NCBI GenBank assembly: GCA_023133295.1
Contig: JAGLWT010000116.1
Location: forward strand, 13,218-77,217
Source: a bacterium
GTDB lineage: Bacteria; AUK180
Length of the DNA stretch: 64,000 bases
Reading direction: 5' to 3'
Shown here: in pieces, positions 5,633 to 54,938 of the stretch
Position numbering within the stretch: the stretch's first letter is position 1
How the letters are laid out: each line of letters starts with the position of its first letter
Notes under the pieces: model-generated
What the model was told of the DNA's origin: nothing
The model's database searches: none
Seen by the model: only the letters and a program-made list of their open reading frames with translations
Translations under genes and position numbers: made by a program

Positions 5633-5954
5633 GGTTCTATCTCCTCGTAAAATTCTAACACATAACCCGGGATATGTCAATTCTTTGATTGATGCCTGAT
5701 TTGATTGATGCCATAACATATTGACTTTTGCTTCCGATCCATATAGTTCTCCATGTAATACTCTATCGCTGACATTTTCCTTTCCTTTTTACCGATAACG
5801 GACATCTTTATTGAAATATTCCTGCTGTCTTTTCATAATTCCAGCGGACCATCTTTTCTCTCTTGCACATAATGGCGCTCTGTCCTTTTCATGTATGTTA
5901 TCTATTTGTGATAATAACAATTGAATAAGAAAAGCATTTTTGGTATAATTCACC

Positions 5955-18035: not shown

Positions 18036-18258
18036 AGGACCTCCTATAATAATTGTTTAGATATTATACCAAATATATGTTTTGAATTCAATATGTCAAA
18101 ACTTATTGAGCGGTATTAAGATGCTGAAAAATAATTTCTGCAGTTTTCCTTTCTCCTTCCGAAGTAAAATGAAAATTCTGAGGGTCTCACCATTTCACTC
18201 TCAACTTAATTTTACTTTTGTGGAGCGGCCGGTTTTGGAGATCCGTGAATAATAAGTA

Positions 18259-18591
18259 TTAGTTCTCCTGCTTATTCTCCAGAATAATTTCTATATAGGG
18301 ATTTTTCTCAGAATAAATATCGTTGAGGCCGACATATCTCCATTGCTGTCTGTTTGGAGTTCCGGTACTATCATGCAAAAAAATCAATATTGGCTTATAT
18401 GCTTCTTTGAATTTCAGATAGCATATTAACGTATTTTCATCCTTTCGAAAACTGTACCCCTGAAAAACTACTGGGCCACAATCTCTATTAATCATAATAT
18501 CCGGAGATAAATCTATTTCTGACTTACTTTTCGCACATTTCTGCAGATAGAACTCTGTTGATAACCTATCGAAATAAAATGGATACGCCAA
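18259..18591 (-). pseudogene. Orphan or truncated copy of the C-terminal domain shared by the GT-C-like membrane proteins at 21108..24877
   Basis: YLKFKEAYKPILIFLHDSTGTPNRQQWRYVGLND aligns with FLRFEKYKPIYLFFHDNFEKPTYQKWRYIDYKLLD from the C-terminus of the 601-aa protein. There is no membrane domain upstream. Confidence 0.5.
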
Positions 18592-18884: not shown

Positions 18885-20231
18885 TTGATGTATAATTTAC
18901 CTATGAAGGCAGTAATAATTGGCGCGGGATTAGCCGGTATCAGCGCGGCAAAATCCTTGCATGAAACAACTTTGTTCGACATGATCACATTGCTGGAAAA
19001 GAATCCGTATATTGGCGGAAGCGCCCACTCATTTTCCTTTGACGGTCTTCTATTTGACACTGGACCGCATCGTTTTCACACGCATAGCAAAGAGCTTAAA
19101 TCCGAAATAATATCTCTCTTTCGTGAAAGTGAGTTGGTATTGAAGAAAAAATCCAGCTCGATTTTTTTCAGAGAAAAAATATTGAACTACCCGATAGAAA
19201 TGAGTGATGTTCTCTTCAAACTACCATTAACCGATTCCGTTTCTTCGCTTAGTTCCTACTTATCTTCAAAGATCAGAAATGGCTTCAGACAGCAGGAACC
19301 CGCGAATTTCGAGGAGTATATAATTTCTAATTTCGGAAGAAAACTATATAATATCTATTTCCGCCCGTACACCGAAAAAATGTGGCATATGCCCGCCAAG
19401 GACATCTCCTCTCTCTGGGCAACGGAGAGGATCCCTTTGGCATCTTTTTCAAAGCTACTTCTAAAAACTGTCGTATCTCTATTCAAGCGGCGTTTCAAAG
19501 AGAGCCACCCTCACTCTCCATATGAAACCCTTTTTCTTTATCCCGAAAACGGCATAGAGATGATCTCACAGCGCCTGATACCCGGGGGCATTGAATTATT
19601 AAAAGGATTTGAAGTAAAGAGTGCTGTAAATAACGGAGATAGGCTGACCGCTGTATCTAACGGAGACATGATAGTTGAAGGCGACCTTTTCATTTTTACA
19701 AATCCGCTGCCGCAAACCGCACGGATGTGTTTAAACACCGACGCAGCAGATCTGAAATACCTGCCGATACATATGTTTTTTATTCCGATCGAAACCGCAC
19801 GGATATCCCGTAACCACTGGATATATTTTCCGGATACAAAAGATGTTTTCTACAGGGTATCAGAGATGAAAAATTTCACAAACACATACCCGGAGAACAG
19901 GACCTCGCTCATTGTTGAAGTTGGAGAATTGCACAATGACAGCGTGGACGAAACTTTCGAGCTCATTATCAAGCAGCTTTCAGAAAAGGGACTCCTGCAA
20001 GCCCGGCATATCCGTAAGGGTAATTTTAAATATCATTTTCTGAAGAACGGATATCCTATATATAAAAAGGGTTTTGAAGCAAAAAGGGAAATGATGTACT
20101 CAAAACTCGGCCATATAAAAAATGTAGGCATTGCGGGCAGGCAGGGGCTGTTCTCATATTTGAATATGGACGCGGCAATACTATCCGGCAGAAGGACGGC
20201 GGAAAATTTACTTACAGAGCTTAAGAACTGA
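18885..20231 (+). CDS. FAD-dependent oxidoreductase, UDP-galactopyranose-mutase (Glf)-like
   Basis: MKAVIIGAGLAGISAA dinucleotide-binding motif (the likely true start is the ATG at 18903). GGSAHSFSFDGLLFDTGPHRFHT closely resembles the Glf GG..(x)..GPHIFHT motif. At 448 aa it is longer than canonical Glf. Confidence 0.5.
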   Translation: MMYNLPMKAVIIGAGLAGISAAKSLHETTLFDMITLLEKNPYIGGSAHSFSFDGLLFDTGPHRFHTHSKELKSEIISLFRESELVLKKKSSSIFFREKILNYPIEMSDVLFKLPLTDSVSSLSSYLSSKIRNGFRQQEPANFEEYIISNFGRKLYNIYFRPYTEKMWHMPAKDISSLWATERIPLASFSKLLLKTVVSLFKRRFKESHPHSPYETLFLYPENGIEMISQRLIPGGIELLKGFEVKSAVNNGDRLTAVSNGDMIVEGDLFIFTNPLPQTARMCLNTDAADLKYLPIHMFFIPIETARISRNHWIYFPDTKDVFYRVSEMKNFTNTYPENRTSLIVEVGELHNDSVDETFELIIKQLSEKGLLQARHIRKGNFKYHFLKNGYPIYKKGFEAKREMMYSKLGHIKNVGIAGRQGLFSYLNMDAAILSGRRTAENLLTELKN

Positions 20232-20819
20232 TAATCGTCCTGAAAACGATGAAGCCGTCTTTTTCATATACTTTTTCAAAATTCAGATCTGCAGTCTTTT
20301 CCACCAGGAAGGGTTTTTCAGGGATCCATTGATTAGAATATGCCCGCATATCTTCAAGGCTCACTACCTCTAAAGGAATGAGATTGTTCTTTTTCCCGAA
20401 AAAATACGGGTTGGGAACTATATAATTGATCCGGTTCCTTAAAACCATCTTTTTCATCTCTGCAGGGGTGATATCGGGATGGAAAAAGTCATCGTATTCC
20501 CTTTTTCTATGAAGAACATCCGCGGCCGCGGGATTTGCCACCAGCGGCCATACATGGAATGCGTAATTGTCCGTGGATGTGGCGATATGATAGGCTGTCC
20601 ATTCATCGGAAAGAATATTTTTTTCTCTATTTTATTGTCTGTAAAATAAGTAATGACGCCGGGGAGTTTCGCTTGATCACCCTTGGGTATATGGCGGTTT
20701 AGCAGTGAGAAATTCCGCTTAATGTTGCCTGTATTGAAAAACATCAAAAGGAGTATAATGATACAGATAGTTCCGATAATATAGGGCCGCTTAATTTTCT
20801 TCAGAAGTAACGCCGCCAC
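20221..20819 (-). pseudogene. Frameshifted, N-terminally truncated paralog of the 773-aa membrane protein (26215..28536)
   Basis: Two overlapping track ORFs in different frames. One reads KGDQAKLPGVITYFTDNKIEKK. The other reads NILSDEWTAYHIATSTDNYAFHVWPLVANPAAADVLHRKREYDDFFHPD...NYIVPNPYFF. Together they align collinearly with residues about 500-773 of the 773-aa protein (KLPEIIRYFNKNNIKGGNIISDHWTSYHMAIFTNNYAFAIWPLVADPNAKDVLQREKDYRIFFNE...YIILNPYFY). The frame switches within an A7 homopolymer near 20622-20630. Confidence 0.65.
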
Positions 20820-21107
20820 ATAAGCAATAATAAGAAATACCGTGATAATGTTCGGGAGCTTTGATGCGTATGCACTTGAAATCAGTTTTGATATCAGAGG
20901 AACAAAAAATGGGTTATCGGGTCCCCGATGTAATCGGGGTTTCCAAGGTCACACGCTCAATAACGATAATGACAGTACTTTTTTAGTCATTCCTGTCCCA
21001 TATTAAGCATGTACTCAACTTGATTGGTTGTGCGGGGTAAACTGCATCGTGATAATCTCATTTTCAATTCTTTCCTTATCAACCTACCAACCTATCAACT
21101 TATTTAC

Positions 21108-22913
21108 TTAATTCACTGATATTTCCATTTTGTAATTATTTTTATCTCCAACGGGATAAATGGGCTTCAAATTATCATCGGTAAACAGAATATAGCCATT
21201 TTTGACATCACCTTTAATCTCCATATCAATTTTTACATTTTTTTCTGAATCAAGTAACTTATAGTCAATATATCTCCATTTTTGATAGGTAGGTTTTTCG
21301 AAGTTATCATGAAAAAACAAATATATCGGTTTATATTTTTCAAATCTTAAAAAAGTGATCAGTGTCTTTTTTTCTTCCTTTATTTTTATTGAATAACCTC
21401 TAAATCTAAAATATTTAAAATCCTTATTCAATATATTTTCCGGATTCATTTCAATTCTTTTGTTATTTGCAACTCTATACAATTTTGTATCAATTAAACT
21501 CCGTTCAAAGATAATCGGGAAGGTGTTGTTCCCACATATAAATGTTCCTTTTATAAAAAGATCAAAAGGAAGTTTCGTTTTTCTACTGTAAGATTTCATT
21601 AACATAATATTATACGGTAATTCATTCTTTATAATTAAATTTTCTAAATTTGCATTTGTAGCGATTAACATATCCGCTTTCATTTTTCCAAAATCAAGTT
21701 CCGGAATATTATTTTTATAAAACAAATACCTACTTGCTTCACCGCTTACAGCATAGATTTTCTTATTTTCGTTATCGTTAATTACTTTGTTTCCGACCTC
21801 CGCTGCCGTCTTTGAGTAATCGTAAAATCCTGTAATAAATATTAGAGAAAATGAGATTGCAAATATTAGTTCAAATACACTAAATTTTCTTTTAAATAGA
21901 TTATCTCTTGAATAAAATATAATGAACGGAAATATTAAAGAAAAATTCCTTACCGTTGGCTGCGGATACACAATTATAATTGCAAAAGATATAAAAAGTA
22001 ACCACAAAATATTTTTAAGATCAAATAGCAAAAGGATAGAAATAAGCAAATAGAGAGAAATAATGAATGCAATAATTTTTGAAATATCCGTATTCAAATA
22101 GATACAAAGAAATAATATAGGTAAAAGGAAAAAATACATTTTCTTTTTTCGGGATAAATAGATTAGGATTGGTAATGTAAGAATAGCTAAGTTAATTGGA
22201 ACCGAAAATACTTTTTGAAAAAATCCTATCCTATTTCCGTAATGGTAATCTCCTCTCCATACCAAGGCATCCAAAATAACATTTCCCCCTTTTTCAATAT
22301 AACATATTAGGATATAAAGAAAAATAACAATGATTGGAAAAAAGTAAATGTATACTTTCTTATCTTTTCGTATGATCATATCTATTAGAAAAAACAAGGC
22401 AACTAAAATTATAGCGTAATTTGTTAGAAGTGAAAAGGACAAAAACAAAGATGATAGAATAATATCTTTTAATTTTCTACTTTTTTTATAATCTTCATAT
22501 TTTAAGAAACTTAATATCAGAAAAACAAAGCAGTATGCTTCATGCATAAATGAATTAACAAACAACAAAACAATTGGTGAAATAAATACCAGAAATATTA
22601 GATATTTTTTAGCGGTATATTTTCTAATTATCAGCATAAACACAAAAAGGTAGAGCAAACTTGAAAAAAGATAAAATAAAAATATGTCCTCCTGAATTGG
22701 GAAAAGCGAGGCAAAGAGTAATAAAAGCGGCGGATGCGTATCATTATATACATAAGATTCTTTACCGTAATATGAAAAAGAAGCATTAAATAAACCGCCA
22801 TTTTTGATTGATATCGCGCTAATTAAGTTTTTGGAACTATCCCAAAAGGGAGGGATGAAAATAGTTACTAACACCAGTACGGTTAAAATTATAATGAGAT
22901 ATTTCTTTTTCAC
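21108..22913 (-). CDS. Multi-TM membrane protein, GT-C fold ArnT/PMT-like (GT39/GT83-type) putative glycosyltransferase with a conserved C-terminal soluble domain
   Basis: More than ten predicted TM helices. The first extracytoplasmic loop contains NDTHPPLLLLF, like the HPPL motif of PMT_2/ArnT-type GT-C enzymes. The C-terminal about 110 aa (FLRFEKYKPIYLFFHDN...YQKWRYI...VKNGYILFTDDNLKPIYPVGDKNNYKMEI) is shared with the protein encoded at 22925..24877. Confidence 0.45.
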   Translation of the reverse strand: MKKKYLIIILTVLVLVTIFIPPFWDSSKNLISAISIKNGGLFNASFSYYGKESYVYNDTHPPLLLLFASLFPIQEDIFLFYLFSSLLYLFVFMLIIRKYTAKKYLIFLVFISPIVLLFVNSFMHEAYCFVFLILSFLKYEDYKKSRKLKDIILSSLFLSFSLLTNYAIILVALFFLIDMIIRKDKKVYIYFFPIIVIFLYILICYIEKGGNVILDALVWRGDYHYGNRIGFFQKVFSVPINLAILTLPILIYLSRKKKMYFFLLPILFLCIYLNTDISKIIAFIISLYLLISILLLFDLKNILWLLFISFAIIIVYPQPTVRNFSLIFPFIIFYSRDNLFKRKFSVFELIFAISFSLIFITGFYDYSKTAAEVGNKVINDNENKKIYAVSGEASRYLFYKNNIPELDFGKMKADMLIATNANLENLIIKNELPYNIMLMKSYSRKTKLPFDLFIKGTFICGNNTFPIIFERSLIDTKLYRVANNKRIEMNPENILNKDFKYFRFRGYSIKIKEEKKTLITFLRFEKYKPIYLFFHDNFEKPTYQKWRYIDYKLLDSEKNVKIDMEIKGDVKNGYILFTDDNLKPIYPVGDKNNYKMEISVN

Positions 22914-22924
22914 ATCAATAATCT

Positions 22925-24877
22925 TTATTTTATCTCCATTTTACAGTTATTTTTATCTCCAATGGGATAAATGGGTTTCAAATTATCATTGGTAAACAGG
23001 ATATAACCGTTTTTGACACCACTTTCAATCTCCAGATCAATTCTTACATTTCCGTTCAGATCAAGCAAGTAGTGAGCAATATATTTCCATTTTTGATAAT
23101 CAGGTTTTCCGATATTATCATGAAAAAAAGCATAAGTCGGTTTATATTTTTCAAATCGTACGAAAAGACTCAATATCTTTTCTTGTTCATTCTCTTCAAT
23201 TGAGTAGCCTATAAATTTAAAATACTTAAAATTCATATTTATAATATGTTCCGGTTTCACTTTTCTTGTCTTTATTTTAGCGAAGTGATTTTGTCTATCA
23301 AATCTGAAAATATTAATATTTTCCAATTCAACATTGGATAATGAGTACGGTAATATTCCTAAGTTATTATCATAAAATCCTGCATGTGCCTTGGCGTTCA
23401 TTATTCTATATGGAAACTTACTTTTATAAATAACTTTTTCTATGTGAAGCAGATCCGGTCTAATACTATTTTTTAATTCAGCTGGACATGAATAAGTTGG
23501 AATGATCATTATATCATTTTCCTTTAATTCATTTGAATTCCAGCAATAATATTTAGCATCTATCTTCTCTAAATAGTATCTAAAGCCCCATTCACCCATA
23601 AACCAGACTCTGTTGTTTTTAACAGTAGATTTGATTTCATCAGCAAATCTTTTATAGCTTTCTGCAAATCTATAATCAGCATAAGTAATGCCGATGGTAT
23701 TTCCTAATGTAAGTATTAGCGTAATTGCAATGAACACTTTTTTTAATACTAAATTTAAATTCAAATTTATTAGATCATACGAAATAATAATTGTAATAAC
23801 CGGCAATGTAATTAATAAATATCTTGCAATGCCCAACGGCATAATTAAAGTACAAATGATTAAATACAAAAGAAAGCAAATTGATAAGAATTTTGTAACA
23901 GAATTATTGGGTCTTATAAATTCTTTAATAATTCTAAACATAATTAATAATCCGGAAAATAGAAATATTATAAATAATGACCTGCTTATAAAATTGAAAT
24001 TCCTGGTAAAAAATATCGTACAAGCGATAGTTATTAGTAATTGAATTATTAATAACTTTTTATTTACCGACTTAAGAAGATACAGAGCTATTATTGATAT
24101 GGGGAAAATAGTGGTGGAGCCTATCACTATAATATTTGAAATAAATTTAGGAATGAGCATTGATATAGCCCTTAGCTTTAAATTTGTGTCACCGGGCCAC
24201 ATTAACGCATATAATGGATGTGGAAATCCAAATTTTATTGTTGTGAAGATTATCCAGATCAATATTGATGATAAACAAATTAAAAAGGGTATATAATAAA
24301 TAAATTTCTTTTTTTTGAAAATAAGATAGTACAAAACAAACAAAAAAAGTAGAAATATACCCCGATAATCAATTCCCCATGATATTATTGAAGTAAGTCC
24401 TGATAAAATTAAGAGTAACACATTGTCGTTTTTTACTCCTTTTATAAAAAACAAAAATGCTAATAAAAAAAATGAAAACATTGGAACATCACTCATTATA
24501 CTAATTGACGAAGTAAACAGTATTGAAGAGAAGGAAAACAGAAAGATTGCTGTAAAAGAAAACAAATCAAATTCCTTTAGTATAAAGTACATAGAAACAA
24601 TAGATAAAATATAGAAAATAATATAAAATAAATGAAAATAAGTTTCATTTACCTCTCCTACAATTATATAACAGAAATGACAGTATAAAAAGTTTAGAGG
24701 TGGCTTGGTAAATTTGTAATACGGTACAGTTTCACCAAGAAAATATACATAATTCTCCTTCGAAAAGAAATTCTTTATAGGAACTTGACCATAAGGTGTC
24801 CTCTGAATAGATTCAATTGTCTTATGGTCATCTATATTGAATGGTTTGTTTACAAAAATTAACTGGACTGATAACAT
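22925..24877 (-). CDS. Multi-TM GT-C-like putative glycosyltransferase, tandem paralog of 21108..22913
   Basis: Same architecture. Loop motif YKFTKPPLNFLY. C-terminus FVRFEKYKPTYAFFHDNIGKPDYQKWKYI...GVKNGYILFTNDNLKPIYPIGDKNNCKMEIK. The 3' ends are about 85-90% identical to 21108..22913 at the nucleotide level (compare 21125-21200 with 22935-23010). Confidence 0.45.
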   Translation of the reverse strand: MLSVQLIFVNKPFNIDDHKTIESIQRTPYGQVPIKNFFSKENYVYFLGETVPYYKFTKPPLNFLYCHFCYIIVGEVNETYFHLFYIIFYILSIVSMYFILKEFDLFSFTAIFLFSFSSILFTSSISIMSDVPMFSFFLLAFLFFIKGVKNDNVLLLILSGLTSIISWGIDYRGIFLLFLFVLYYLIFKKKKFIYYIPFLICLSSILIWIIFTTIKFGFPHPLYALMWPGDTNLKLRAISMLIPKFISNIIVIGSTTIFPISIIALYLLKSVNKKLLIIQLLITIACTIFFTRNFNFISRSLFIIFLFSGLLIMFRIIKEFIRPNNSVTKFLSICFLLYLIICTLIMPLGIARYLLITLPVITIIISYDLINLNLNLVLKKVFIAITLILTLGNTIGITYADYRFAESYKRFADEIKSTVKNNRVWFMGEWGFRYYLEKIDAKYYCWNSNELKENDIMIIPTYSCPAELKNSIRPDLLHIEKVIYKSKFPYRIMNAKAHAGFYDNNLGILPYSLSNVELENINIFRFDRQNHFAKIKTRKVKPEHIINMNFKYFKFIGYSIEENEQEKILSLFVRFEKYKPTYAFFHDNIGKPDYQKWKYIAHYLLDLNGNVRIDLEIESGVKNGYILFTNDNLKPIYPIGDKNNCKMEIK

Positions 24878-25390
24878 GATGATCAGTAATAAAAAAAACT
24901 TAATTCCTTTTAAATTATATTTTTCTATAATAACTAACCATCCTTTTCTTTAAGGAACCTTTTCTCGCTTCCTTCGGTCATTTCAGATTTTTTTAAATCT
25001 CCTTCTCTATCGTAAGTCTGCTCCTTTTTGACATATTGCCTTCATTTCATCCGAAAGGACGAATTCCATTTCGCTACGCTGCATTCCATTCGCCCTTCAT
25101 GGTGTAAACTATTGTTTGTCTCACTTTCAAGGGAGAGCAGGACATTGTGACCTATCAGATTAGTTGAAATATATCGGATTTTTCAGAAAAAGTCAAATAA
25201 TTTATTGTTTCTATATATCAAAATATGCGTTTTTTTATTCTAACCATTTTGATTTGATAATATTTTTAAGTTCACGATTGCCTTTAACATTTAAATGATA
25301 AGTTTTATCGAGAGAGAGTTTATCCGGAATAAAAATGCAACTTTTTATATCTAATTCCTTATTAATTTTTTCAATATCATCCACCATTTT

Positions 25391-26218
25391 TTAAAAAAAA
25401 TAATACTTATTATCTTTTTTGTTCTGTGTCAACATATAATTCCCAAGTATAATAATTGACAAATTGTATTCATTCTGAATCTTTTTTATAAGATACCTAT
25501 ACCTATTTAATCCTTCATTATAATCTTTACTGTACTTTTTAAAATATTCATAACTGTCTTCTCCTTGATAGTATTGGCTTTTCTTTTTGTCTTTAATATT
25601 TAATGATAAATACATCGGGTGCAAAAGAGCAATCAATGGATCATTATTTATAATCCAGGGAAATGCTCTTTTATTGGGATAAACTATTGAATATTCATTC
25701 CCATTTTTAACTATTGTCGGGGCTGATCCTGGATAACGAAAGAACTCTCCAAAATCATTTCCTATATAGAAAATAATAAGCACATTTGAACCTTTTGAGA
25801 TATTATATTTTTTAAGTAAAAGATACTCTTGTATCGGCGAATATGTAATAACCCCGAAATTATAAAAATAATACCCATTCCCCTCTTTATTTAACAGAGA
25901 TGTAAAGAGATTGTTGTTTATAACATAATTATCAGTTTGAGAATCTCCCAATACATATATAGGAATCTCATTATCTCTTATTTTTCTGCAATTTCGATTA
26001 CCATATTTCCCTGTTTTGATCTTTGCCTTTGATCGTCGAGCCTGATAAAATTCATTGTGTTTAATTCCAAGTATATTATCATAAACATAGGAACCATATC
26101 CATTTTTACCCTTATTAAAACCACTGATATTACAATGAACAAATAAAATAATATCCAATAATAAAAAACAAATTATAATAAAAAGTAGTATCTTTAAAGC
26201 TTTTTTGAAGATATTCAT
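25391..26218 (-). CDS. SGNH/GDSL-family hydrolase-like protein (possible glycan O-acyl esterase or transferase)
   Basis: N-terminal TM anchor. IPIYVLGDSQTDNYV gives a GDS(x) block-I motif. Overlaps the upstream 773-aa gene by 4 nt. Confidence 0.45.
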   Translation of the reverse strand: MNIFKKALKILLFIIICFLLLDIILFVHCNISGFNKGKNGYGSYVYDNILGIKHNEFYQARRSKAKIKTGKYGNRNCRKIRDNEIPIYVLGDSQTDNYVINNNLFTSLLNKEGNGYYFYNFGVITYSPIQEYLLLKKYNISKGSNVLIIFYIGNDFGEFFRYPGSAPTIVKNGNEYSIVYPNKRAFPWIINNDPLIALLHPMYLSLNIKDKKKSQYYQGEDSYEYFKKYSKDYNEGLNRYRYLIKKIQNEYNLSIIILGNYMLTQNKKDNKYYFF

Positions 26219-28536
26219 TTTAAGTTCACCATTATAAATCTTTTATTTCTAATGGGTAAATACGGTCTATGATTCCTATCTGTAAAAATGATTTTATAGT
26301 CTCCATTATTCTTAGATATCTTAATATGACATTTAACAAAAGACCATACACCCATTTCTTCCATAGTTAATGAGTGCCAATTTTGTACTACAAGTTTATC
26401 ATCCTTATAATTATGAATAAACATAACCAGATCATCATCTATTTCCTTCATCTTTAAATATATTTCATAGATATAATTATTTTCTTTTTCAATCTTGTTA
26501 TACCCTAAAAAAATGAATTTTCTATAATTTAAATTTACTTTATGTTTATAATCCAAAGCTATTTTTTTGCTTTTATCTAACATTTGATTGCTATGGAAAT
26601 TCATCTTAAAAATATAATATCCATTTTCACAAAAAACCTGTTCTGCATTTAACTTTAAAACTTTATCTACAATAAAATTCCGATCCGGGCCCCATTGTAA
26701 AGAGTGTTTCCACATATTTTCAATAGAATTTACTTCAATGGCTTTAACATTTCGTTCCGGTTTATAAAAATAGGGATTTAATATTATATACTTTATACCC
26801 CATTTTTTTAAGATTTCATCCATTTCTTTTACTTTAGTTTTCTCATTAAAAAAGATTCTATAATCTTTCTCCCGTTGTAGAACATCTTTGGCATTGGGAT
26901 CAGCTACGAGTGGCCAAATTGCGAAAGCATAATTATTTGTAAATATAGCCATGTGATATGAAGTCCAGTGGTCTGATATTATATTTCCCCCTTTTATATT
27001 ATTTTTATTAAAATATCGTATAATTTCGGGCAACTTGCTTTTTTGTGATACACCTATATTATTCTTTATCAGTTTATAATCGCGTACCAAATTCTTAAAG
27101 ATTTTGGGACTTATAATCAGCAAAAAACATATTAGCAAAAAACCGAAATATTTTGTCTTCAATTTCTTTTTCAATTCAAGAATTATAAAAGCCAAAATTA
27201 AAAAAGCAGGTACAAATATACTTAATTTCGAAGCATAAGCACTACTGATTATTTTTGATAAACCTACTACAAGAATTGGATTTAACAACAACAAAGGAGA
27301 AAGGACTGCTGTTGATATCATAAATTGTAAAGTAGTGTTTCTTCTAATTTTTTTAATAAAAAACAATATTCCTAAAAAAGCTATCAATGGAGTAATCGGA
27401 TAAATTGTAGGTGGTAGTGTAAACATAATATAGATTTGGCGAAAGACAAATTTTGGATGAATAATAAACAGATTTTTTGTAAGAAAGACGAGGTGATCCG
27501 GAAGAAAGAAAGCTTGCTGTGCAAGTTGTGGATCATAATGTAATGGATTGTGAATACCATAAGATAACCATTTTAGAATGTAATAAGGAATATTGAAAAT
27601 CGTAACATAGAAAAAGATCTCTATAACCCTTCTATTACTTTTATCCCTCAATAATATTTTCACAAGAAATATCGCAAAGAGCGAAAGATAGAAAAGAATC
27701 ATATAGAATATCTGAAATTCCGTCAATATCAAAGAAATAATTATTGTAGTCCAAAGGTATTTTTTATCACTGCTGTCAAGGTATTTAATCATTTCAATTA
27801 GTGCCAACGGCAATATCGTATACATTGCAATAGCATCCGCGAGTGCAAATTTTCTCAATATCAATCGCTCATACCCTATTCCCCCGAAATGAAAAATAAA
27901 TACTAATACTACAAGTAAACCACCAAGATTTTTCTTCAAAAGATGTTTCCCAAAACAATATTGGGCAAATATAGCAATAAAGCTCATATACGCCGGAAGA
28001 TTTATCCATATTTTTAAAGGATCCAATCCGGAAATTTTGCTGTAAATCAATATCATAAAATGGTAAAGGCTAAAAGAGAATCTCGGATCCATCCCTTCAT
28101 TACTATAGACAAAATTCTTGTTTTGCACTATATTGTTAAAAAGAGATTTGTAAATTATGGAAAGGTTGTTAAGATCGTTTGCAATATCTCCTTTAATAAT
28201 ATAAAGCAATATTACATAAACCAGTGCTATACCAATTGTAACAGATGAATAAGTGTTAAGCGGTATGATTTTTGTGCTTTTTATTTTTTTTGAAAGCAAT
28301 AGAAACAAAAAGAACATTACTAATAAAATATATATTACATATACTAAAAATACCGTTTTTTTAAGCGATAGCTCAAAAAGAAACCCTAAACCACAAGGGA
28401 TATAATAAATTAAAAGGGAAAGCACAAAGAAATACGGAACTTTTTCAATACCTAATTCCTGAGAAAAGAAAATTCTATATATGACGATGCCTGGAACAAT
28501 AAATAAAAAAATAAAATAGAGTAATTCAATTATCAT
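26215..28536 (-). CDS. Large multi-TM membrane protein (773 aa), GT-C/YfhO-like putative glycosyltransferase, with a related C-terminal soluble domain
   Basis: About 14 TM helices followed by a roughly 280-aa C-terminal soluble region. The last 80 aa (DDLVMFIHNYKDDKLVVQNWHSL...GDYKIIFTDRNHRPYLPIRNK) resemble the C-terminal domain of the 601-aa and 650-aa proteins. The pseudogene at 20221..20819 is a paralog. Confidence 0.4.
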   Translation of the reverse strand: MIIELLYFIFLFIVPGIVIYRIFFSQELGIEKVPYFFVLSLLIYYIPCGLGFLFELSLKKTVFLVYVIYILLVMFFLFLLLSKKIKSTKIIPLNTYSSVTIGIALVYVILLYIIKGDIANDLNNLSIIYKSLFNNIVQNKNFVYSNEGMDPRFSFSLYHFMILIYSKISGLDPLKIWINLPAYMSFIAIFAQYCFGKHLLKKNLGGLLVVLVFIFHFGGIGYERLILRKFALADAIAMYTILPLALIEMIKYLDSSDKKYLWTTIIISLILTEFQIFYMILFYLSLFAIFLVKILLRDKSNRRVIEIFFYVTIFNIPYYILKWLSYGIHNPLHYDPQLAQQAFFLPDHLVFLTKNLFIIHPKFVFRQIYIMFTLPPTIYPITPLIAFLGILFFIKKIRRNTTLQFMISTAVLSPLLLLNPILVVGLSKIISSAYASKLSIFVPAFLILAFIILELKKKLKTKYFGFLLICFLLIISPKIFKNLVRDYKLIKNNIGVSQKSKLPEIIRYFNKNNIKGGNIISDHWTSYHMAIFTNNYAFAIWPLVADPNAKDVLQREKDYRIFFNEKTKVKEMDEILKKWGIKYIILNPYFYKPERNVKAIEVNSIENMWKHSLQWGPDRNFIVDKVLKLNAEQVFCENGYYIFKMNFHSNQMLDKSKKIALDYKHKVNLNYRKFIFLGYNKIEKENNYIYEIYLKMKEIDDDLVMFIHNYKDDKLVVQNWHSLTMEEMGVWSFVKCHIKISKNNGDYKIIFTDRNHRPYLPIRNKRFIMVNLK

Positions 28537-28786
28537 TTTTAGTTATTATATAAATCTTGGAAATCCCGAAAAACCATGAATAAGCATTTTTTATCAGGGA
28601 TTTTATGATTTTTTTAAAGCGGAGTGTAACAATACTGATATAATTTTCCTTATTATGGTAAGGGCTTTTTATCCCAAAAAGTAAACGAAAATATGGATTT
28701 GAATTTAAAACAAATCTGGACTGTATCCATGTAAACTTAAATATCAGTTTATTTTGAAATATTCTTTCTATTACGGTCATAGTCAT
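28526..28786 (-). CDS. Small hypothetical protein (86 aa) whose start and stop both overlap the neighbouring genes
   Basis: The ORF overlaps the start of the 773-aa gene (28526-28536) and the stop of the methyltransferase gene (28783-28786), consistent with translational coupling. No recognisable family. It could also be a spurious bridging ORF. Confidence 0.3.
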   Translation of the reverse strand: MTMTVIERIFQNKLIFKFTWIQSRFVLNSNPYFRLLFGIKSPYHNKENYISIVTLRFKKIIKSLIKNAYSWFFGISKIYIITKNDN

Positions 28787-29646
28787 CTACCCTCTACTTT
28801 TTTTGCATAAATTGTTGCCACATCAAAAAGATTGAGATATATTTTAATCTTTCCTATCTTATTTTTCAATAAAAATAAATATATCGCTTTAAATATAGGA
28901 AATTTTCTTTGAATATGATAAAAGATATGTCTTGAATAATAAAATTTCCCGTAATATTTAATAGATTTAATTTCAAACCCATTATTATTACAAAAGTATT
29001 TAATACTTTTCTTTGTAAAATAATTTAAATGATATGGGGGTATAAAAAGGTACCATTTTCTCCCCATTATTCGAGCAAATAGTGAATCTATCAGAGGAAC
29101 TGTTAATATGAGCGCTCCATTTGCATTAAGATCTTTACCTATGTTACGGAGCATTCGCGCGGGGTATTTTACATGTTCAAATATATCAAATGCGGTGATA
29201 ATATCATATTTCGTATCTTGTGAAGAGGTTTCGTAATTATGAACTTTCAGGTCAAGAAAGTATCTTTCCTTTCCAAGGGCAATAATCTCCTCTCCTATAT
29301 CAACACCCTGAAGCTGCATATTCGAAATTTCGGAAATGGAGTAAAGAAACTCACCGGAAGCACAACCGATATCTAAAAGAGAAGATGCTCGCTTGGAAAC
29401 ATGTTTCACAAGCCTTCTGAAAATCTGACACCAATTTCCATCAATGCAATCGTCAATATAATTTCCGTATCCTTCGTCACTATTTGGATTTACAAAGGAG
29501 TCCAGATTATATAGATCGTCATATCGTATATCTGCAAAACCCTCATAGAACACCGAGCCGCAATTTGAACATTTTACATGCTTTTTCACAATCTCTCTTT
29601 TCAATATCATAAGGGAGTTGCAGCCGCATAATTTACATTTTTTCAT
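28783..29646 (-). CDS. Class I SAM-dependent methyltransferase with an N-terminal zinc-ribbon (sugar C/O-methyltransferase-like)
   Basis: CKLCGC...CSNCGS zinc ribbon. LLDIGCASGEFL matches motif I (GxGxG-like). A later D..FEH(V) acidic motif is typical of Methyltransf_11/12-family enzymes. Confidence 0.65.
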   Translation of the reverse strand: MKKCKLCGCNSLMILKREIVKKHVKCSNCGSVFYEGFADIRYDDLYNLDSFVNPNSDEGYGNYIDDCIDGNWCQIFRRLVKHVSKRASSLLDIGCASGEFLYSISEISNMQLQGVDIGEEIIALGKERYFLDLKVHNYETSSQDTKYDIITAFDIFEHVKYPARMLRNIGKDLNANGALILTVPLIDSLFARIMGRKWYLFIPPYHLNYFTKKSIKYFCNNNGFEIKSIKYYGKFYYSRHIFYHIQRKFPIFKAIYLFLLKNKIGKIKIYLNLFDVATIYAKKVEGR

Positions 29647-29750
29647 ATTTAAATATTTAGTTTTCCATGATTCTGAACAACTCTACTCCTTCACATCGAG
29701 GAGAAGAGAAATAATTATTGTAAAGCAAAAGACTGCTTTTGCTATTTATT

Positions 29751-31412
29751 TCATTTCTCAATTTTATAATCTCCCATTACGAGAATATCGATCCCTGTGC
29801 CGCTAAATGTATTTATCGCATCCTGAGGAGTGCATACGATCGGCTCTCCCCTGATATTGAAAGAGGTATTCAAAACCAACGGGATGCCCGTAAGTTTTTC
29901 AAATTCCCGTATTAGAGAATAATATCTCCCATTCTGTTCTTTACTTACCGTTTGAACCCTTGCCGTTCCGTCGACATGTACAACTGCAGGTATTTCTTTC
30001 CGCTTTTGCTGAACTGTATCGAAAACAATTGTCATATAAGGAGATTTACCGCAGCCGATAAAATAATCTCCGGCTTTTTCCTCAAGAACACTTGGTGCAA
30101 ACGGGCGGAAACCCTCTCGATGCTTGACCTTTTCATTAATAAGGTCTTTCATGTCCTTCTTTCTGGGATCCGCAAGAATGCTTCTGTTGCCGAGGGCGCG
30201 TGGTCCGAATTCCATTTTCCCCTGATACCAACCGACTATTTTCCCCCTGCTTATTTCCAAAGCCGTATCCTTTTCTATTTCACTTGATCTTGTAAAATGA
30301 AGTTTATTCTTTTTGAGAACATTCAATATCTCTTCATTGTCAAAAGCAGGACCCAGATAGGCATTATTCAACGGCAATTTACTTTCATTACCAAGTATAT
30401 TATAGTATCCGTACAGAGCGGCGCCAAGCGAAGTTCCCGCGTCATTGGAAGCGGGCTGGACATACATATCTTCGATATCGGTTTCTCTGAGCAACCGTCC
30501 ATTAGCAACCGAGTTCAGGGCGACGCCTCCTGCCATACAGAGATATTTCAAGGAGTATTTGTTGAGATAATACCGTACTACCTCTAGAAGCACTTCCTCT
30601 GTAACTTTTTGTAAAGAAGCGGCCATATCCATTTCAAGATCCGTAAATTCAGTAGCATTGTCATGGGGATAGAAGTTATGCTTTCTTTCAAATTTTTCAG
30701 TGATATAACTCTCCCAGCCATGTGAGAGATTGAATTTTGAAAGATCAAAAGAAAACCGTCCTTTGCCTACCCTTACAAGTGACATGATCTCAGAAAAATA
30801 CTTCGGTGTACCGTAAGGAGCCAGGCCCATGAGCTTACCTTCTCCATTATGTGCTTTGAACCCAAGATACTGAGTGATATCAGAATACAGCATTCCCAGG
30901 GAATGAGGGTAGTTCACATGTGCCACCTGTTCAATAAGGTTACCCCTTCCGATTCCAACGGTCATCGTCTCGAATTCCCCTGAATGATCAATTGATAGTA
31001 TAAGGGATTCGTCGAAGCCGCTCGGATAGAAAGCGGAGGCCATATGCGCCATATGATGTGATATCTTGACAAAGCGGGCATCTCTTAATATATCAATAGC
31101 CCTTACCTTTTTCCTGATGCCCAAAAGAGATGATACATATGAGCTCCTGGAATGAAGGTATTTTAACGATGAGGGAAATCGCAGCAGAAGAAATCCCGCC
31201 CGCTGAAACAGCATGGGAGTATTGAGCCAGGGAAAAACGATCAGCTCAGGAGAAGTATCATACTTGTTGCCGATAAGCTCAAGGGATTCATGCGGAAAAA
31301 CCGATGTATGTTTTTCTCTTGAAAGACGCTCCTCCTCGATCGAGAATACGGATTCCCCTGAGATCACAGTTATAGAAGAATCATGTGTATAACAATTCAA
31401 TCCCAGTATCAT
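29751..31412 (-). CDS. Carbamoyltransferase, NodU/CmcH family
   Basis: MILGLNCYTHDSSITVI...EEERLSREKH...HHMAHMASAFYPSGFDESLILSIDHSGE...ALNS...SFN matches the NodU/CmcH N- and C-terminal domains along its length. Confidence 0.85.
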   Translation of the reverse strand: MILGLNCYTHDSSITVISGESVFSIEEERLSREKHTSVFPHESLELIGNKYDTSPELIVFPWLNTPMLFQRAGFLLLRFPSSLKYLHSRSSYVSSLLGIRKKVRAIDILRDARFVKISHHMAHMASAFYPSGFDESLILSIDHSGEFETMTVGIGRGNLIEQVAHVNYPHSLGMLYSDITQYLGFKAHNGEGKLMGLAPYGTPKYFSEIMSLVRVGKGRFSFDLSKFNLSHGWESYITEKFERKHNFYPHDNATEFTDLEMDMAASLQKVTEEVLLEVVRYYLNKYSLKYLCMAGGVALNSVANGRLLRETDIEDMYVQPASNDAGTSLGAALYGYYNILGNESKLPLNNAYLGPAFDNEEILNVLKKNKLHFTRSSEIEKDTALEISRGKIVGWYQGKMEFGPRALGNRSILADPRKKDMKDLINEKVKHREGFRPFAPSVLEEKAGDYFIGCGKSPYMTIVFDTVQQKRKEIPAVVHVDGTARVQTVSKEQNGRYYSLIREFEKLTGIPLVLNTSFNIRGEPIVCTPQDAINTFSGTGIDILVMGDYKIEK

Positions 31413-34083: not shown

Positions 34084-34788
34084 TCATTTTTTCAGTCTTT
34101 CGCTGAAGAGGACAAAAAAGGCATAAATAGCATCTATCCAATGAATTTTGCTTTCCTCGACCTTTCTCGGAGTATAAGATATCGGGATCTCACAGAATCT
34201 ATAATTGAATTTAAAGATCTTTGCTGTGATCTCACACTCCATTTCAAATCCGTCATATTTCAGATTCAACGACTCCAGAATGCCTTTTCTGAACACCTTA
34301 TAGCCCGATGCTTCATCTGTAATATTTTTTCCATATAGTATCCGCACCGTCAGATTAATGAGTTTATTCGCCAGGAGCCGGGGAATTGATTTCATTTTTA
34401 CTTTTTTCAAAAATCTTGAACCGTATACAACATCGGCCTGCCCTGCTATGATCGGGAGTAACAAACCGGATATCTCTTCCGGATAATACTCCAGATCGGC
34501 ATCCTGAATAACAACAATATCACCGGAAGACACTTTCAAGCCTTTTTTTATTGAATAACCCTTTCCTCTGTTCACGCGGTTTTCACAAAGGATATCATAA
34601 AGATTGAAGTTCTCTTTCAATATTGCGTTCGAACTGTCTGTCGAACCGTCGTCCACTACGATGACTTCATGTTTAAATGAAAGCTTGGCGATCCGCTCAA
34701 GGACCTTCAGGATAGTTTCCGATTCATTGAAAGCCGGAATGATTATCGAGATCATCGCGTCAAATTCCGCGTTCTTCATATTTCTCAT
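34084..34788 (-). CDS. Family-2 glycosyltransferase, polyprenol-phosphate sugar synthase (Dpm1/ArnC/GtrB)-like
   Basis: ISIIIPAFNESETI, VIVVDDGSTDSS, VVIQDADLEYYPEE (DAD) and GSRF motifs at 234 aa are typical of Dpm1-like GT2 enzymes, which supply lipid-linked monosaccharide donors to GT-C enzymes. Confidence 0.7.
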   Translation of the reverse strand: MRNMKNAEFDAMISIIIPAFNESETILKVLERIAKLSFKHEVIVVDDGSTDSSNAILKENFNLYDILCENRVNRGKGYSIKKGLKVSSGDIVVIQDADLEYYPEEISGLLLPIIAGQADVVYGSRFLKKVKMKSIPRLLANKLINLTVRILYGKNITDEASGYKVFRKGILESLNLKYDGFEMECEITAKIFKFNYRFCEIPISYTPRKVEESKIHWIDAIYAFFVLFSERLKK

Positions 34789-52509: not shown

Positions 52510-54663
52510 CTATCTGTTGTTGATGATGCCAACAGTTTCCTCAATGGAAAAGGTCCCATCTTTCATTATTCGGAGTCTGCTTTCAGGTCCTGATCTCTCT
52601 TTATTAAAAATACCAATTACAACCTTGTATTTGCCCTTTGGGGCATCTTTTGGAAATATGAAGGCTAGATTTTCTCTGATGAATCCCCTTCCGGAAATGA
52701 TTTGGTTTGAGAGAAAATCCATATGGGGTTCATGGTCAATATTATACCGGTATGCCTTTTCATTATAGTCCATTTCTATATGTACCATGATAGAAAAAGC
52801 TCTATCGATAACCTCTTTGGGTTCCCAGTAGAAGTCAAAGTCGAACATTCCATTGGAATCATTGTAGCTATGTTTAAATCCCCGGAAAAGGACTTTTCCT
52901 TCAAAATCCAGCGTAGTATCTTCAATGCTGTCAGGAAGTTCAGACAGGATCGCATCACCTTCAGTGAAGAGCTTTCCTTTGTTGACTTTGTATAATGTGA
53001 ATGATAACTCAAATTCTTTCAATAAATCCCGTATAATTTCTTTGCTGTTGCGAATCTTCTTATATGACGGAAGGTCAAACCATGTATCAAGATTGTCAGC
53101 TGAATATTTCCCCATGTATGTCAGAAAGTCTGTTTCGTCGTTCTCCCTGTCAAGAAAATCGAGTTTTTCATTAACAAGCCACCAGCCAGTGTTCGCCCGA
53201 TTAAACAGTAAATAGTCGGGATTTGTTTTCATGAGATACCGCTTCAAGTCATCTATATCCATACCATGGACATAAGTCACTTCCTCTCCCTCAGCATAAA
53301 AGATGATCTCAGGAGGAAACGCCATTATTTTGGAATGTTCCGGAATATTTGATCTAATATCCAGGCCGATGTTTTTTGCCATCATCCCCAGCTTGAGATA
53401 ATACTCGAAGTTGTTTGCCTTGGGGGGGATATTGAACAGAGAGAAAAGGAGAAATACAGCCATAGTAATAACCGATATCAGCTTGGAACGTTCAGATAAA
53501 AGAAATATCACATATGCCTGAATCCCTGCTATCAAAGGAAGAAGGTATATCAAATATCGGGTAGCTAGTGACTTCCATGGCACAAAGAATGGGATGGTCA
53601 TCGTAAAAAGCATTACAGGGGTAAGCAGTTTCAGCAAAGGACTCTTCTTGTATATGATAATCAGAAAACCGAAGATCAGAAGCAGTATTTTCAGTATATT
53701 GTTGTTGAAGAGCTTTGGAATTACCCAGCCAAACATCTGACTCAGGTTGTTTATGTATCTAAGTGAGAGGTTTTTTACATCTGAAAGGGTAAGTTCTCTC
53801 CGATTATGCATGAGGTGCATCTTGGATATGTTCTGGTCATCATCGTATTCATAGAGGGTTTCTGTGTAAGTGGAATCCTTGAAGAACCTCCTCAAAGCGT
53901 GGGTTTTGCCGCTCAAGGTCCATCGTCCGGTTTTCTTATGTAAGAAGTTTATATATGGCAAGGAAAAAATAGTAAAGATTAACATATACAATAAAACGAC
54001 CGGTAGGTATCTCTTAAGACTGACTTTGCCCAACCCTTTCGTCAGAAAAATGAATATGGGGATAATAAAGAGTAGAAAAAAACCTTCAACCCTGGTCATA
54101 TAAGCAAGCGAAGACGCTATCCCCGAAAAGAAAATAAGCAGGACGCCTTTTCTGCAGTCAAGGCTCATGACGGTAAACATCAATGAAAGAAAGAATAAAA
54201 ACGCAAAGACAGTGCTTTCCCCGTTCTGAATTGAATATTCGATCAGGATCGGATCAAATGTTAGAAGTACTACGAAAAGGATCGCGGCGGGCCGGTTTAG
54301 GAGTTTTTTCAAAATTGCATAAGCAGGAATAAACACAGCACTACCGAAAATGATCGCGGGGATCTTCGCTGCAAGAATCGGGATATCGGTGATTTTTAAC
54401 ATGACGGCCAGGAGGAAGGGGAAAACAGGAGGTTTAAATACATTGAAGAGAGCTCCATTGCCATCTAGCCAGTTGGTCGCGATTTGATACTTCACAATAT
54501 CGTCAAAATTGGTAAAGAAAGTGAAATAGTCAATGAGAGACAGCCTGATCGCCACATTTACGAATAGTACCGCCAGAAGAAAATACTTATCGGCCTTGAG
54601 GGGTTTATGGCTAAAAATGAACGAGTTTACTGGCTTAAAAATTCCCATAATGATTCTATCCAT
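52510..54663 (-). CDS. Multi-TM GT-C-like (ArnT/PMT-type) putative glycosyltransferase with a C-terminal soluble domain (native-composition paralog)
   Basis: About 12 TM helices. The first-loop motif NVFKPPVFPFLLAV compares with HPPL/KPPL in the other GT-C-like proteins. The C-terminal about 250 aa are beta-rich and soluble. The likely start is the ATG at 54661-54663 (MDRIIMGIFKP) with AGGAG upstream; the track ORF extends to 54756. Confidence 0.4.
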   Translation of the reverse strand: MDRIIMGIFKPVNSFIFSHKPLKADKYFLLAVLFVNVAIRLSLIDYFTFFTNFDDIVKYQIATNWLDGNGALFNVFKPPVFPFLLAVMLKITDIPILAAKIPAIIFGSAVFIPAYAILKKLLNRPAAILFVVLLTFDPILIEYSIQNGESTVFAFLFFLSLMFTVMSLDCRKGVLLIFFSGIASSLAYMTRVEGFFLLFIIPIFIFLTKGLGKVSLKRYLPVVLLYMLIFTIFSLPYINFLHKKTGRWTLSGKTHALRRFFKDSTYTETLYEYDDDQNISKMHLMHNRRELTLSDVKNLSLRYINNLSQMFGWVIPKLFNNNILKILLLIFGFLIIIYKKSPLLKLLTPVMLFTMTIPFFVPWKSLATRYLIYLLPLIAGIQAYVIFLLSERSKLISVITMAVFLLFSLFNIPPKANNFEYYLKLGMMAKNIGLDIRSNIPEHSKIMAFPPEIIFYAEGEEVTYVHGMDIDDLKRYLMKTNPDYLLFNRANTGWWLVNEKLDFLDRENDETDFLTYMGKYSADNLDTWFDLPSYKKIRNSKEIIRDLLKEFELSFTLYKVNKGKLFTEGDAILSELPDSIEDTTLDFEGKVLFRGFKHSYNDSNGMFDFDFYWEPKEVIDRAFSIMVHIEMDYNEKAYRYNIDHEPHMDFLSNQIISGRGFIRENLAFIFPKDAPKGKYKVVIGIFNKERSGPESRLRIMKDGTFSIEETVGIINNR

Positions 54664-54938
54664 GTCTTCATAGCTCCTATAATGAACATTTATCATAAAA
54701 TGAGAAAAATTGCAAAGCATTTCGCAAATACATGTTTTCGATTTGATCGAGGCCAACCCGCAACTTAAGCAACTTGTTGGGCGGGAGAAGTGAGAGGGTG
54801 AGGCCTGGATTCCCGATCGAGCCGGGAATGACGAATGGAAAGAAGATAGGTGCCCGATCCACGATAGTAAGCAGGATTCCTGAAGTCACAGGCTTAGGAA
54901 TGGCGAAATATATTATTTAACCCGAGATATTTCCCTAA

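Follow-up and report, generated by a model that had tools for sequence, protein, structure and literature searches.

The locus and its genes

Three intact genes on the minus strand of the window (the whole stretch of DNA that was analysed, 64,000 nucleotides) encode proteins of 601, 650, and 773 residues (Table 1). Their open reading frames are exact and the last ~110 residues of all three align, bearing out the proposal of the earlier note that they share a C-terminal domain, here also called the tail. The 601-aa protein is identical to the library protein P0010. The locus has a GC content of 27% and a strongly biased amino-acid composition, and the domain-bearing genes form a low-GC block within a larger cluster. 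This cluster contains a GT2 resembling polyprenyl-phosphate sugar synthases, two carbamoyltransferases, a methyltransferase, SGNH proteins, and a Wzy_C-like protein.

The gene for one SGNH-like protein overlaps the 773-aa gene by 4 nt. Homologs of this protein are found in the two other genomes that carry the domain (discussed later), one adjoining P0012 (50% identity) and one ~3.4 kb upstream of P0014 (31%); its presence near the domain-bearing GT-Cs is conserved in all three genomes. The GT2 has its best NCBIfam likenesses to AglJ, ArnC (PRK10714), PpgS, and dolichyl-phosphate hexose transferase, none of which reaches its equivalog cut-off. Its location in the same cluster is circumstantial support for the idea that it likely supplies a lipid-linked donor to the GT-C enzymes.

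Table 1. Features of the domain-bearing locus, with positions counted along the window
Feature	Positions	Strand	Evidence
Pseudogene: 601-type linker and full domain, in-frame TAA at 18259-18261	18187..18591	-	Read-through translation; tblastn
Frameshifted, 5'-truncated remnant of 773-type body, residues 419-645	20236..20915	-	tblastn; six-frame view
601-aa GT-C (PMT_2-like) glycosyltransferase	21108..22913	-	ORF; body homology to 650-type
Predicted beta-sandwich domain of 601-aa protein, ~residues 494-601	21111..21434	-	Alignments A2, A5
650-aa GT-C glycosyltransferase	22925..24877	-	Homologs elsewhere without tail domain
Predicted beta-sandwich domain of 650-aa protein, ~residues 544-650	22928..23248	-	
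275-aa TM-anchored SGNH/GDSL-like protein	25391..26218	-	Lipase_GDSL match weak, E 0.002
773-aa multi-TM protein with divergent domain copy	26215..28536	-	ORF
Divergent domain copy of 773-aa protein	26218..26535	-	Profile match; hhalign
234-aa GT2, polyprenyl-phosphate sugar synthase-like	34084..34788	-	Pfam Glycos_transf_2, 1.6e-30
748-aa PMT_2 GT-C, comparator outside the family	52510..54756	-	PMT_2 at 44.4 bits

Sequence of the shared domain

The tails of the 601- and 650-aa proteins have 64-68% amino-acid identity and 82% DNA identity, and the tail of the 773-aa protein is 24% identical to either. The divergent copy was nevertheless recovered at 35.9 bits (E 1.8e-10) from all six-frame ORFs of the window by a profile made without it, and no further ORF among them was matched by the domain profile. 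This match and the independent carriers described later show that the likeness of the copies is not due to chance. When the 773-aa protein is aligned to A3 with hhalign, only the C-terminal domain region aligns. The consensus given in the earlier note, F.RFEKYKP.Y.FFHDN...YQKW.YI...VKNGYILFT.DNLKPIYP.GDKNN.KMEI, fits the 601/650 pair well and the 773 copy only loosely. Three residues, Tyr29, His57, and Gln66, are invariant in all six domain copies, and a fourth, Trp68, occurs in five. Between the 601 and 650 tails, dN is 0.195 and dS 0.646. The resulting dN/dS of ~0.3 suggests purifying selection on the tail, which would be a sign of function.

The membrane bodies

The 601 and 650 bodies had been taken for GT-C enzymes, an assignment that agrees with their homology in hhalign and a conserved Asp after TM1. 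The 601 body aligns with the 650-type family at 99.7% probability (E 6e-26). Asp16 of the 650-aa protein, within an IDD motif after TM1, is invariant in all 13 sequences of A3, and Asp25 of the 601-aa protein ('FWDSS') aligns with it, as does the 'LDS' of P0012 and P0014. Both a multi-helix membrane body of the GT-C fold and, following TM1, a conserved acidic residue in the first extracytoplasmic loop are found. The 650-aa protein matches Pfam PMT_2 (PF13231) at 26.4 bits, with a cut-off of 26.1; the 601- and 773-aa proteins have no PMT_2 match even at E 10, and a PDB sequence search with a 13-sequence full-length profile gave no match. The proper start of the 650-aa gene may be missing, together with part of TM1 (the stretch concerned, 24878-24960, has a T8 tract), and the protein is therefore possibly not fully functional.

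In the 773-aa protein, ~11 hydrophobic segments precede a soluble region of 289 residues. Its body has no match in Pfam (PMT_2 included), NCBIfam, or PDB sequences, and gives an hhalign probability below 1% with the 601, 650, and 748 bodies. It is possibly a GT-C as well, as its multi-TM layout and shared tail argue. At least two of the three tail-bearing proteins are glycosyltransferases.

Tail exchange and pseudogene remnants

Identity between the 601 and 650 bodies is 27%, with a third-codon identity of ~0.3 and saturated synonymous sites (pS 0.78), whereas the tails have a third-codon identity of ~0.75 and a pS of 0.43. This step in identity coincides with the domain boundary, and six 650-type homologs end before the domain. 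Given tails that are 68% identical on bodies that are 27% identical, and 650-type homologs elsewhere that have no tail, the comparison indicates that the tail was transferred recently, as a module, between the two genes. The pair provides a natural experiment, in which one module sits at these identities on two bodies and relatives of one body are without it.

Two decayed sequences lie nearby. What had been described as a stand-alone truncated copy at 18259-18591 is instead a pseudogene of the full-length domain, in which an in-frame TAA is followed by 'YLLFTDLQNRPLHKSKIKLRVKW' to ~18190; it belongs to the 601 type, with 35% identity to residues 464-586 of the 601-aa protein (tblastn E 1.4e-16). 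Likewise, the decayed paralog that had been placed at 20221-20819 holds no domain copy and is a remnant of a 773-type body; tblastn matches it in two frames, with one piece at 43% identity (E 2.7e-30) and the other at 36% (E 4e-10). The two remnants were also considered as a single gene split by a 448-aa oxidoreductase gene. This reading was rejected, since one belongs with the 773 type and the other with the 601 type, and the last strand before the linker is present in both pieces.

Predicted fold and placement of the tail

The tail is predicted with good confidence to be an Ig-like, eight-strand beta-sandwich of ~110 residues, the AF2 model of the domain having eight strands and a pLDDT of 83.9. 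The structures that it matches best are accessory domains of carbohydrate-active enzymes, but such matches are generic, with Ig and FN3 domains scoring level with CBMs at ~10% identity. By a crude hydropathy count there are 8-11 TM segments, and the tail is rich in Lys and Arg. The full-length model places the tail, at a low pLDDT of 35-55, after the soluble region that follows the last TM helix, joined through a low-confidence linker. In solved GT-Cs, the corresponding soluble region faces the periplasm or the lumen. Taken from the GT-C fold, the position of the tail would accordingly be on the periplasmic side.

Rarity and relatives

The earlier note could not match the domain to a known one by eye, and Pfam, NCBIfam, and PDB sequences are likewise all without a match. 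None of the six copies has a Pfam match above chance, there is no NCBIfam match, and a PDB sequence search with the domain returned nothing below E 0.26. The one Pfam candidate, DUF1684 (PF07920), was matched by the 601 copy alone, at 16.3 bits (E 0.012 to 0.002) where the cut-off is 25; this hit, which none of the other five copies shares, was judged to be chance. The tail was also suspected to be a divergent member of a widespread 'LLGY...LYW'-type C-terminal module of PMT_2 proteins. With the shallow profiles used, this idea found no support: A5 aligned by hhalign with the C-terminal regions of P0004 and the 748-aa protein at a probability of 0.2%. Between these two regions themselves, blastp finds no significant similarity (E 0.85), and the domain profile does not match that of the 748-aa protein, which, as had been noted for 52510-54756, differs from the domain.

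The domain alignment had no match among 5.8 billion proteins in a word-indexed search, and JGI metagenome contigs yielded no relatives with either the domain alignment or the whole 773-aa protein. Among GTDB genome contigs, that of P0012 was the sole match. In a whole-library HMMER search, P0012 (E 7.5e-20) and P0014 (E 2e-8) emerged as independent carriers, both of them orthologs of the 601-aa protein with the domain present; the 601 type is the native carrier of the domain. A further match, to the 1869-aa repeat protein P0013 in nine stretches, is spurious, its 'EYQNWEYVKP' repeat mimicking the YQKWKY motif. The domain is extremely rare, the family being known from three uncultivated genomes only.

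The two other genomes in which the domain is kept have GC contents of 29% and 45%. Retention in genomes of such different GC was counted as a sign of function.

The suggestion that the domain may be novel holds for the sequence family and fails for the fold, which is an ordinary Ig-like/CBM-like beta-sandwich. Pfam, NCBIfam, and PDB sequences gave no confident assignment to a known family with established function, and for this reason the idea of the earlier note stands, though it is unremarkable.

Proposed function and alternatives

GT-C enzymes act outside the cytoplasm to decorate the surface glycans of bacteria, and their choice of acceptor is, to our knowledge, poorly understood. The reading favoured here, with modest confidence and by analogy, is that the locus is a chromosomal surface-glycan decoration cluster of an uncultivated bacterium, and that the tails are CBM-like modules. 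The ArnC/AglJ-like GT2 would probably load a sugar onto polyprenyl phosphate. After flipping, the 601- and 650-aa proteins, and possibly the 773-aa protein, would transfer the sugar to the glycan at the outer face of the cytoplasmic membrane. The Ig-like beta-sandwich in which each of the three is predicted to end, after its periplasmic domain, would keep the acceptor polymer close to the active site, as the tails of EmbC, AftD, and GT136 ORF12 are reported to do. Within this scheme, we infer the periplasmic location, the glycan binding, and the donor pathway. Because very different bodies carry one tail, the tail would set the polymer that is decorated and the body the sugar or linkage that is added. 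The view of the earlier note, that the module probably determines acceptor recognition, is a reasonable analogy.

A further proposal, tentative and rather doubtful, is that the tail is a portable acceptor-targeting cassette, moved by recombination between otherwise unrelated membrane glycosyltransferase bodies, with the 773 body lying outside described families. If this were true, the lineage would re-aim new transferase chemistries at one surface polymer, diversifying its glycan coat combinatorially, and the adjacent pseudogene copies would be debris of this turnover. The scope of the work is limited: the architecture, a C-terminal Ig-like CBM on a GT-C, is already known, the fold is common, and the genomes are three and uncultivated. 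The domain is a new sequence family within that known architecture.

The finding of an SGNH-like homolog near a domain-bearing GT-C in three of three genomes, and of one tail on three very different bodies, would also fit a protein-docking module that joins the GT-C bodies to a common partner (the SGNH-like protein, a polymerase, or an export complex), so that several modifying enzymes would share one assembly line. This is unlikely, since the same gene neighbourhood is equally expected of enzymes acting on one glycan, the closest fold matches come from accessory domains of carbohydrate-active enzymes, and the C-terminal sandwiches of characterised GT-Cs bind glycan. More unlikely still is a passive structural element (a spacer, stabiliser, or folding cap) with no specific ligand, kept since its loss destabilises the enzyme. 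Copying onto a body whose relatives are without such a cap would be unexpected, as would purifying selection there (dN/dS ~0.3) and the residues invariant in six of six copies (Tyr29, His57, and Gln66) or shared by five (Trp68), even though no binding motif is recognisable, 650-type homologs exist without the tail, and the CBM of GT136 ORF12 is non-essential.

Finally, a GC content of 27%, a strongly biased amino-acid composition, and adjacent pseudogene copies raise the question of whether the similarity is an artefact of assembly chimerism, of low-complexity AT-rich coding sequence, or of a decaying, non-functional extension. This explanation is effectively refuted. The ENA and Logan assemblies independently give the same gene order, the domain copies have diverged and are not identical, the profiles give strong E-values, other genomes contain independent carriers, the AF2 fold is confident and compact, and dN/dS is well below 1.

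Comparison with known systems

The favoured reading, in which the tail holds an acceptor glycan, can be set beside several known systems. At the level of fold, the tail is like the Ig-like beta-sandwich of GH2 glycosidases (3bga, 8dhl, 5t9a; 8-10% identity), and it matches neither Pfam Glyco_hydro_2 nor any other Pfam family. The 650-aa protein resembles the ArnT/PMT_2 family (PF13231) in its PMT_2 match at threshold and the acidic residue after TM1, but ArnT and most 650-type relatives end after an alpha/beta periplasmic domain, without a beta-sandwich tail.

GT-C enzymes with C-terminal Ig-like CBMs are known, namely EmbC, AftD, and GT136 ORF12 (PMC3044687, PMC11127046). The C-terminal domain of EmbC is described as a lectin-like CBM (PMC3044687), and the mycobacterial arabinofuranosyltransferases EmbA/B/C and AftD as GT-Cs whose periplasmic C-terminal beta-sandwich binds acceptor glycan (PMC3044687, PMC11127046); the predicted placement here is alike. 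However, the soluble parts of the Emb proteins and AftD are much larger, consist of several modules, and have no sequence similarity to the proteins here, and they belong to another lineage and act on another glycan.

GT136 ORF12 is the GT-C of a three-component extracytoplasmic glycosylation system in Citrobacter youngae O1 (Kelly et al. 2024, PMC11127046). Its C-terminal Ig-like CBM binds the unmodified acceptor O-polysaccharide and is dispensable for activity (PMC11127046). No sequence relationship to it was detected, the bodies here being PMT_2/ArnT-like rather than GT136; the putative donor synthase is an ArnC/AglJ-like GT2 rather than a phosphoribose synthase, and no flippase was identified beside the genes here. 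The tail lies after the last TM helix, as C-terminal CBMs of GT-Cs do, but does not belong by sequence to a described CBM or Ig-like family. GT136 ORF12 clusters with a polyprenyl-phosphate sugar synthase, as the proteins here do with a synthase-like GT2, and combines, as they are predicted to, a multi-TM GT-C body with an Ig-like beta-sandwich after the last TM helix.

A shared C-terminal domain and its transfer

The final ~110 amino acids of three neighboring membrane proteins of 601, 650, and 773 residues can be aligned with one another, as the earlier note had claimed. The tails of the 601- and 650-aa proteins are 64-68% identical, and that of the 773-aa protein is 24% identical to either. 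When all six-frame ORFs of the window were searched with a profile made from the other five of six domain copies, the 773 tail was recovered at 35.9 bits (E 1.8e-10). No further window ORF scored, including the fourth GT-C (membrane glycosyltransferase) protein, of 748 residues, consistent with the claim that its C-terminal domain is a different one. The soluble C-terminal region of this PMT_2 protein spans ~300 aa, and its gene directly follows that of a MurJ-family flippase on the minus strand (region 52510-56510).

An AF2 model of the domain, based on the four window copies, is all-beta with eight strands (pLDDT 83.9, pTM 0.78). Foldseek against the PDB, a check proposed earlier, returned only generic fold-level matches (FN3 and cytokine-receptor domains; CBM56, CBM21, and CBM9; a SusE-like protein), the best at E 5e-3. 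No Pfam family was hit in two or more of the six copies, the single match being sub-threshold, and a PDB sequence search gave no match. These results point to a predicted fold that is an ordinary Ig-like/CBM-like sandwich and, judged by sequence, to an undescribed family; the suggestion that the domain may be novel thus holds for the family but not for the fold.

The most useful finding is a recent transfer of this domain between paralogs. The 601- and 650-aa proteins are 27% identical in their bodies and 68% in their tails (82% in tail DNA); identity at third codon positions is ~0.3 in the bodies and ~0.75 in the tails, and pS is 0.78 (saturated) and 0.43, respectively. The shift is abrupt, in a single step that coincides with the domain boundary. 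Between orthologs, domain and body have diverged similarly: the 601-aa protein and P0014, its counterpart in another genome, share 33% identity in the domain and 31% in the body. Nine 650-type homologs align to just the first 80% of the 650-aa protein, and six of them terminate there; the 650-type homologs P0004, P0008, and P0009 have unrelated C-terminal extensions. Most parsimoniously, recombination or gene conversion would have given the 650 gene the tail of the neighboring 601-type lineage. The 650 tail has been under purifying selection since the transfer (dN 0.195, dS 0.646 between the two tails).

Enzyme bodies

The earlier view of a GT-C family stands for two of the three bodies. The 650-aa protein barely passes the Pfam PMT_2 threshold (26.4 vs 26.1 bits), and its AF2 model, made from 18 sequences, reaches a pLDDT of 77 overall and close to 90 in the membrane body. 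When the 601-aa protein is taken together with its orthologs P0012 and P0014, their body proves homologous to the 650-type family (hhalign 99.7%, E 6e-26, 465 columns). The catalytic acid of GT-C enzymes usually sits just after TM1, and an Asp directly following TM1 is invariant in 13 sequences. The 773-aa protein has ~11 hydrophobic segments followed by a 289-aa soluble tail; its body matches neither Pfam, NCBIfam, or PDB sequences nor the 601 and 650 bodies, which leaves it a candidate GT-C.

If translation begins at its first ATG, the 650-aa protein has only MLSVQLIFVNKPF ahead of the catalytic-loop IDD motif, where homologs have a full TM1. The upstream frame is open for 25 codons (RKGWLVIIEKYNLKGIKFFLLLII), contains a T8 run, and lacks ATG, GTG, and TTG, suggesting a non-canonical ATT/ATA start, a lost start codon, or a length-variable tract.

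Distribution

The domain family is very narrowly distributed. A word-indexed search of 5.8 billion proteins with the domain alignment found no match. Five proteins came out of an exhaustive HMMER search in which the profile was run against 1.84 billion representatives of ~15 billion proteins; two of the five are the window's own 601- and 773-aa proteins. Carriers elsewhere, sought at the earlier note's suggestion, are P0012 (598 aa, E 7.5e-20) and P0014 (619 aa, E 2e-8); no others turned up in scans of GTDB genomes or JGI metagenomes. The remaining match, P0013, is a repeat protein and was rejected as spurious. P0012 comes from a MAG (bacterium isolate AUK180; 2.8-kb contig, 29% GC), and P0014 from a 54-kb Logan contig of 45-48% GC, syntenic with the window (HHH_3, ComEC, then glycan genes). 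The 650-aa protein is missing from both large protein libraries, in which its 601- and 773-aa neighbors are present with identical sequences.

Gene neighborhood and pseudogenes

Features of the window; numbers follow minus-strand gene order
Order	Feature	Coordinates	Strand	Remarks
1	ComEC		minus	
2	841-aa protein	34785-37310	minus	directly downstream of ComEC; weak Wzy_C (O-antigen ligase/polymerase) match, TPR repeats
3	234-aa GT2		minus	closest to AglJ, ArnC, PpgS, Dol-P-hexose transferases
4-6	carbamoyltransferase, SGNH protein, second carbamoyltransferase	29751-34043	minus	carbamoyltransferases NodU/CmcH-type (553, 563 aa)
7	methyltransferase		minus	
8	773-aa protein	26215-28536	minus	ORF
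9	275-aa SGNH/GDSL-like protein	25391-26218	minus	TM-anchored
	open frame upstream of 650-aa gene	24878-24952	minus	
10	650-aa protein	22925-24877	minus	ORF
11	601-aa protein	21108-22913	minus	ORF
12	pseudogenes	20236-20915; 18259-18591	minus	after 601-aa gene
	448-aa FAD/NAD-binding oxidoreductase	18885-20231	plus	between the pseudogene remnants
	three very large predicted secreted proteins	14790-18035; 43878-46940; 47835-51371	minus	
	748-aa GT-C	52510-54756		
	MurJ-family flippase	54939-56510	minus	
	low-GC block	21100-29650		26-32% GC; contig 42-47%

The two carbamoyltransferase genes around an SGNH gene suggest a carbamoylated, otherwise heavily decorated glycan, for which the 841-aa Wzy_C-like protein is a candidate polymerase or ligase. 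Within the low-GC block lie the three domain-bearing genes together with those for the SGNH-like protein and the methyltransferase; the contig of the relative P0012 is 29% GC throughout, hinting that the block was acquired from a low-GC donor. The three large secreted proteins have Lamin-tail (LTD), Big_5, and fn3 domains and FlgD_ig/T9SS-like C-terminal tails, which hint at an FCB-group source organism.

Both pseudogenes differ from their earlier description. The supposed truncated stand-alone copy is a pseudogenised 601-type linker with a complete domain (35% identity to the 601-aa protein, E 1.4e-16, tblastn), reading through an in-frame TAA into YLLFTDLQNRPLHKSKIKLRVKW to ~18190. The decayed paralog, placed at 20221-20819, is what remains of a 773-type body after frameshift and 5' truncation; it matches residues 419-645 (tblastn) and lacks the domain. 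The end of the oxidoreductase gene overlaps this remnant; its product belongs to the PRK07208 family, with N-terminal similarity to UDP-galactopyranose mutase. A NAD_binding_8 gene adjoins P0012 on its contig, and its product has no significant similarity to the oxidoreductase by blastp.

Possible role of the domain

If the locus works like three-component extracytoplasmic glycosylation systems, the GT2 would make a polyprenyl-phosphate sugar, and the GT-C enzymes would move the sugar onto a surface glycan outside the cytoplasm. The tail would be a CBM-like module holding that acceptor glycan. A tail common to different bodies fits a division of labor, the polymer being chosen by the tail and the chemistry by the body. 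The analysis establishes the sandwich fold as predicted, the family's rarity, the GT-C assignment of two bodies, and the tail transfer; topology, ligand, and sugar donor are inferred, so that the earlier note's interpretation is partly supported.

In the main rival reading, the tail would dock the enzymes onto the conserved SGNH partner or some other complex. In each of the other two genomes, a homolog of the 275-aa SGNH/GDSL-like protein is encoded close to the domain-bearing GT-C, at 2362-2847 of the P0012 contig (50% identity) and 5641-6642 of the P0014 contig (31% identity), and this protein may work together with the GT-C, for instance by adding O-acyl groups to the glycan or removing them. 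A passive structural role for the tail is less likely than either glycan binding or docking. That the shared tail is an artefact is excluded; the locus was assembled twice independently, in a 125-kb ENA metagenome scaffold that includes the window and in a Logan contig.

Comparison with known systems

The domain is new as a sequence family; its fold is common, and the architecture in which it occurs has been described before. GT136 ORF12 is a GT-C enzyme with an Ig-like C-terminal module, as are the 601- and 650-aa proteins. This CBM binds unmodified O-polysaccharide and is dispensable for activity (PMC11127046); acceptor binding, seen in ORF12, would apply here by analogy. The C-terminal domain of EmbC, described as a lectin-like CBM (PMC3044687), may likewise be an analogue of the tail.
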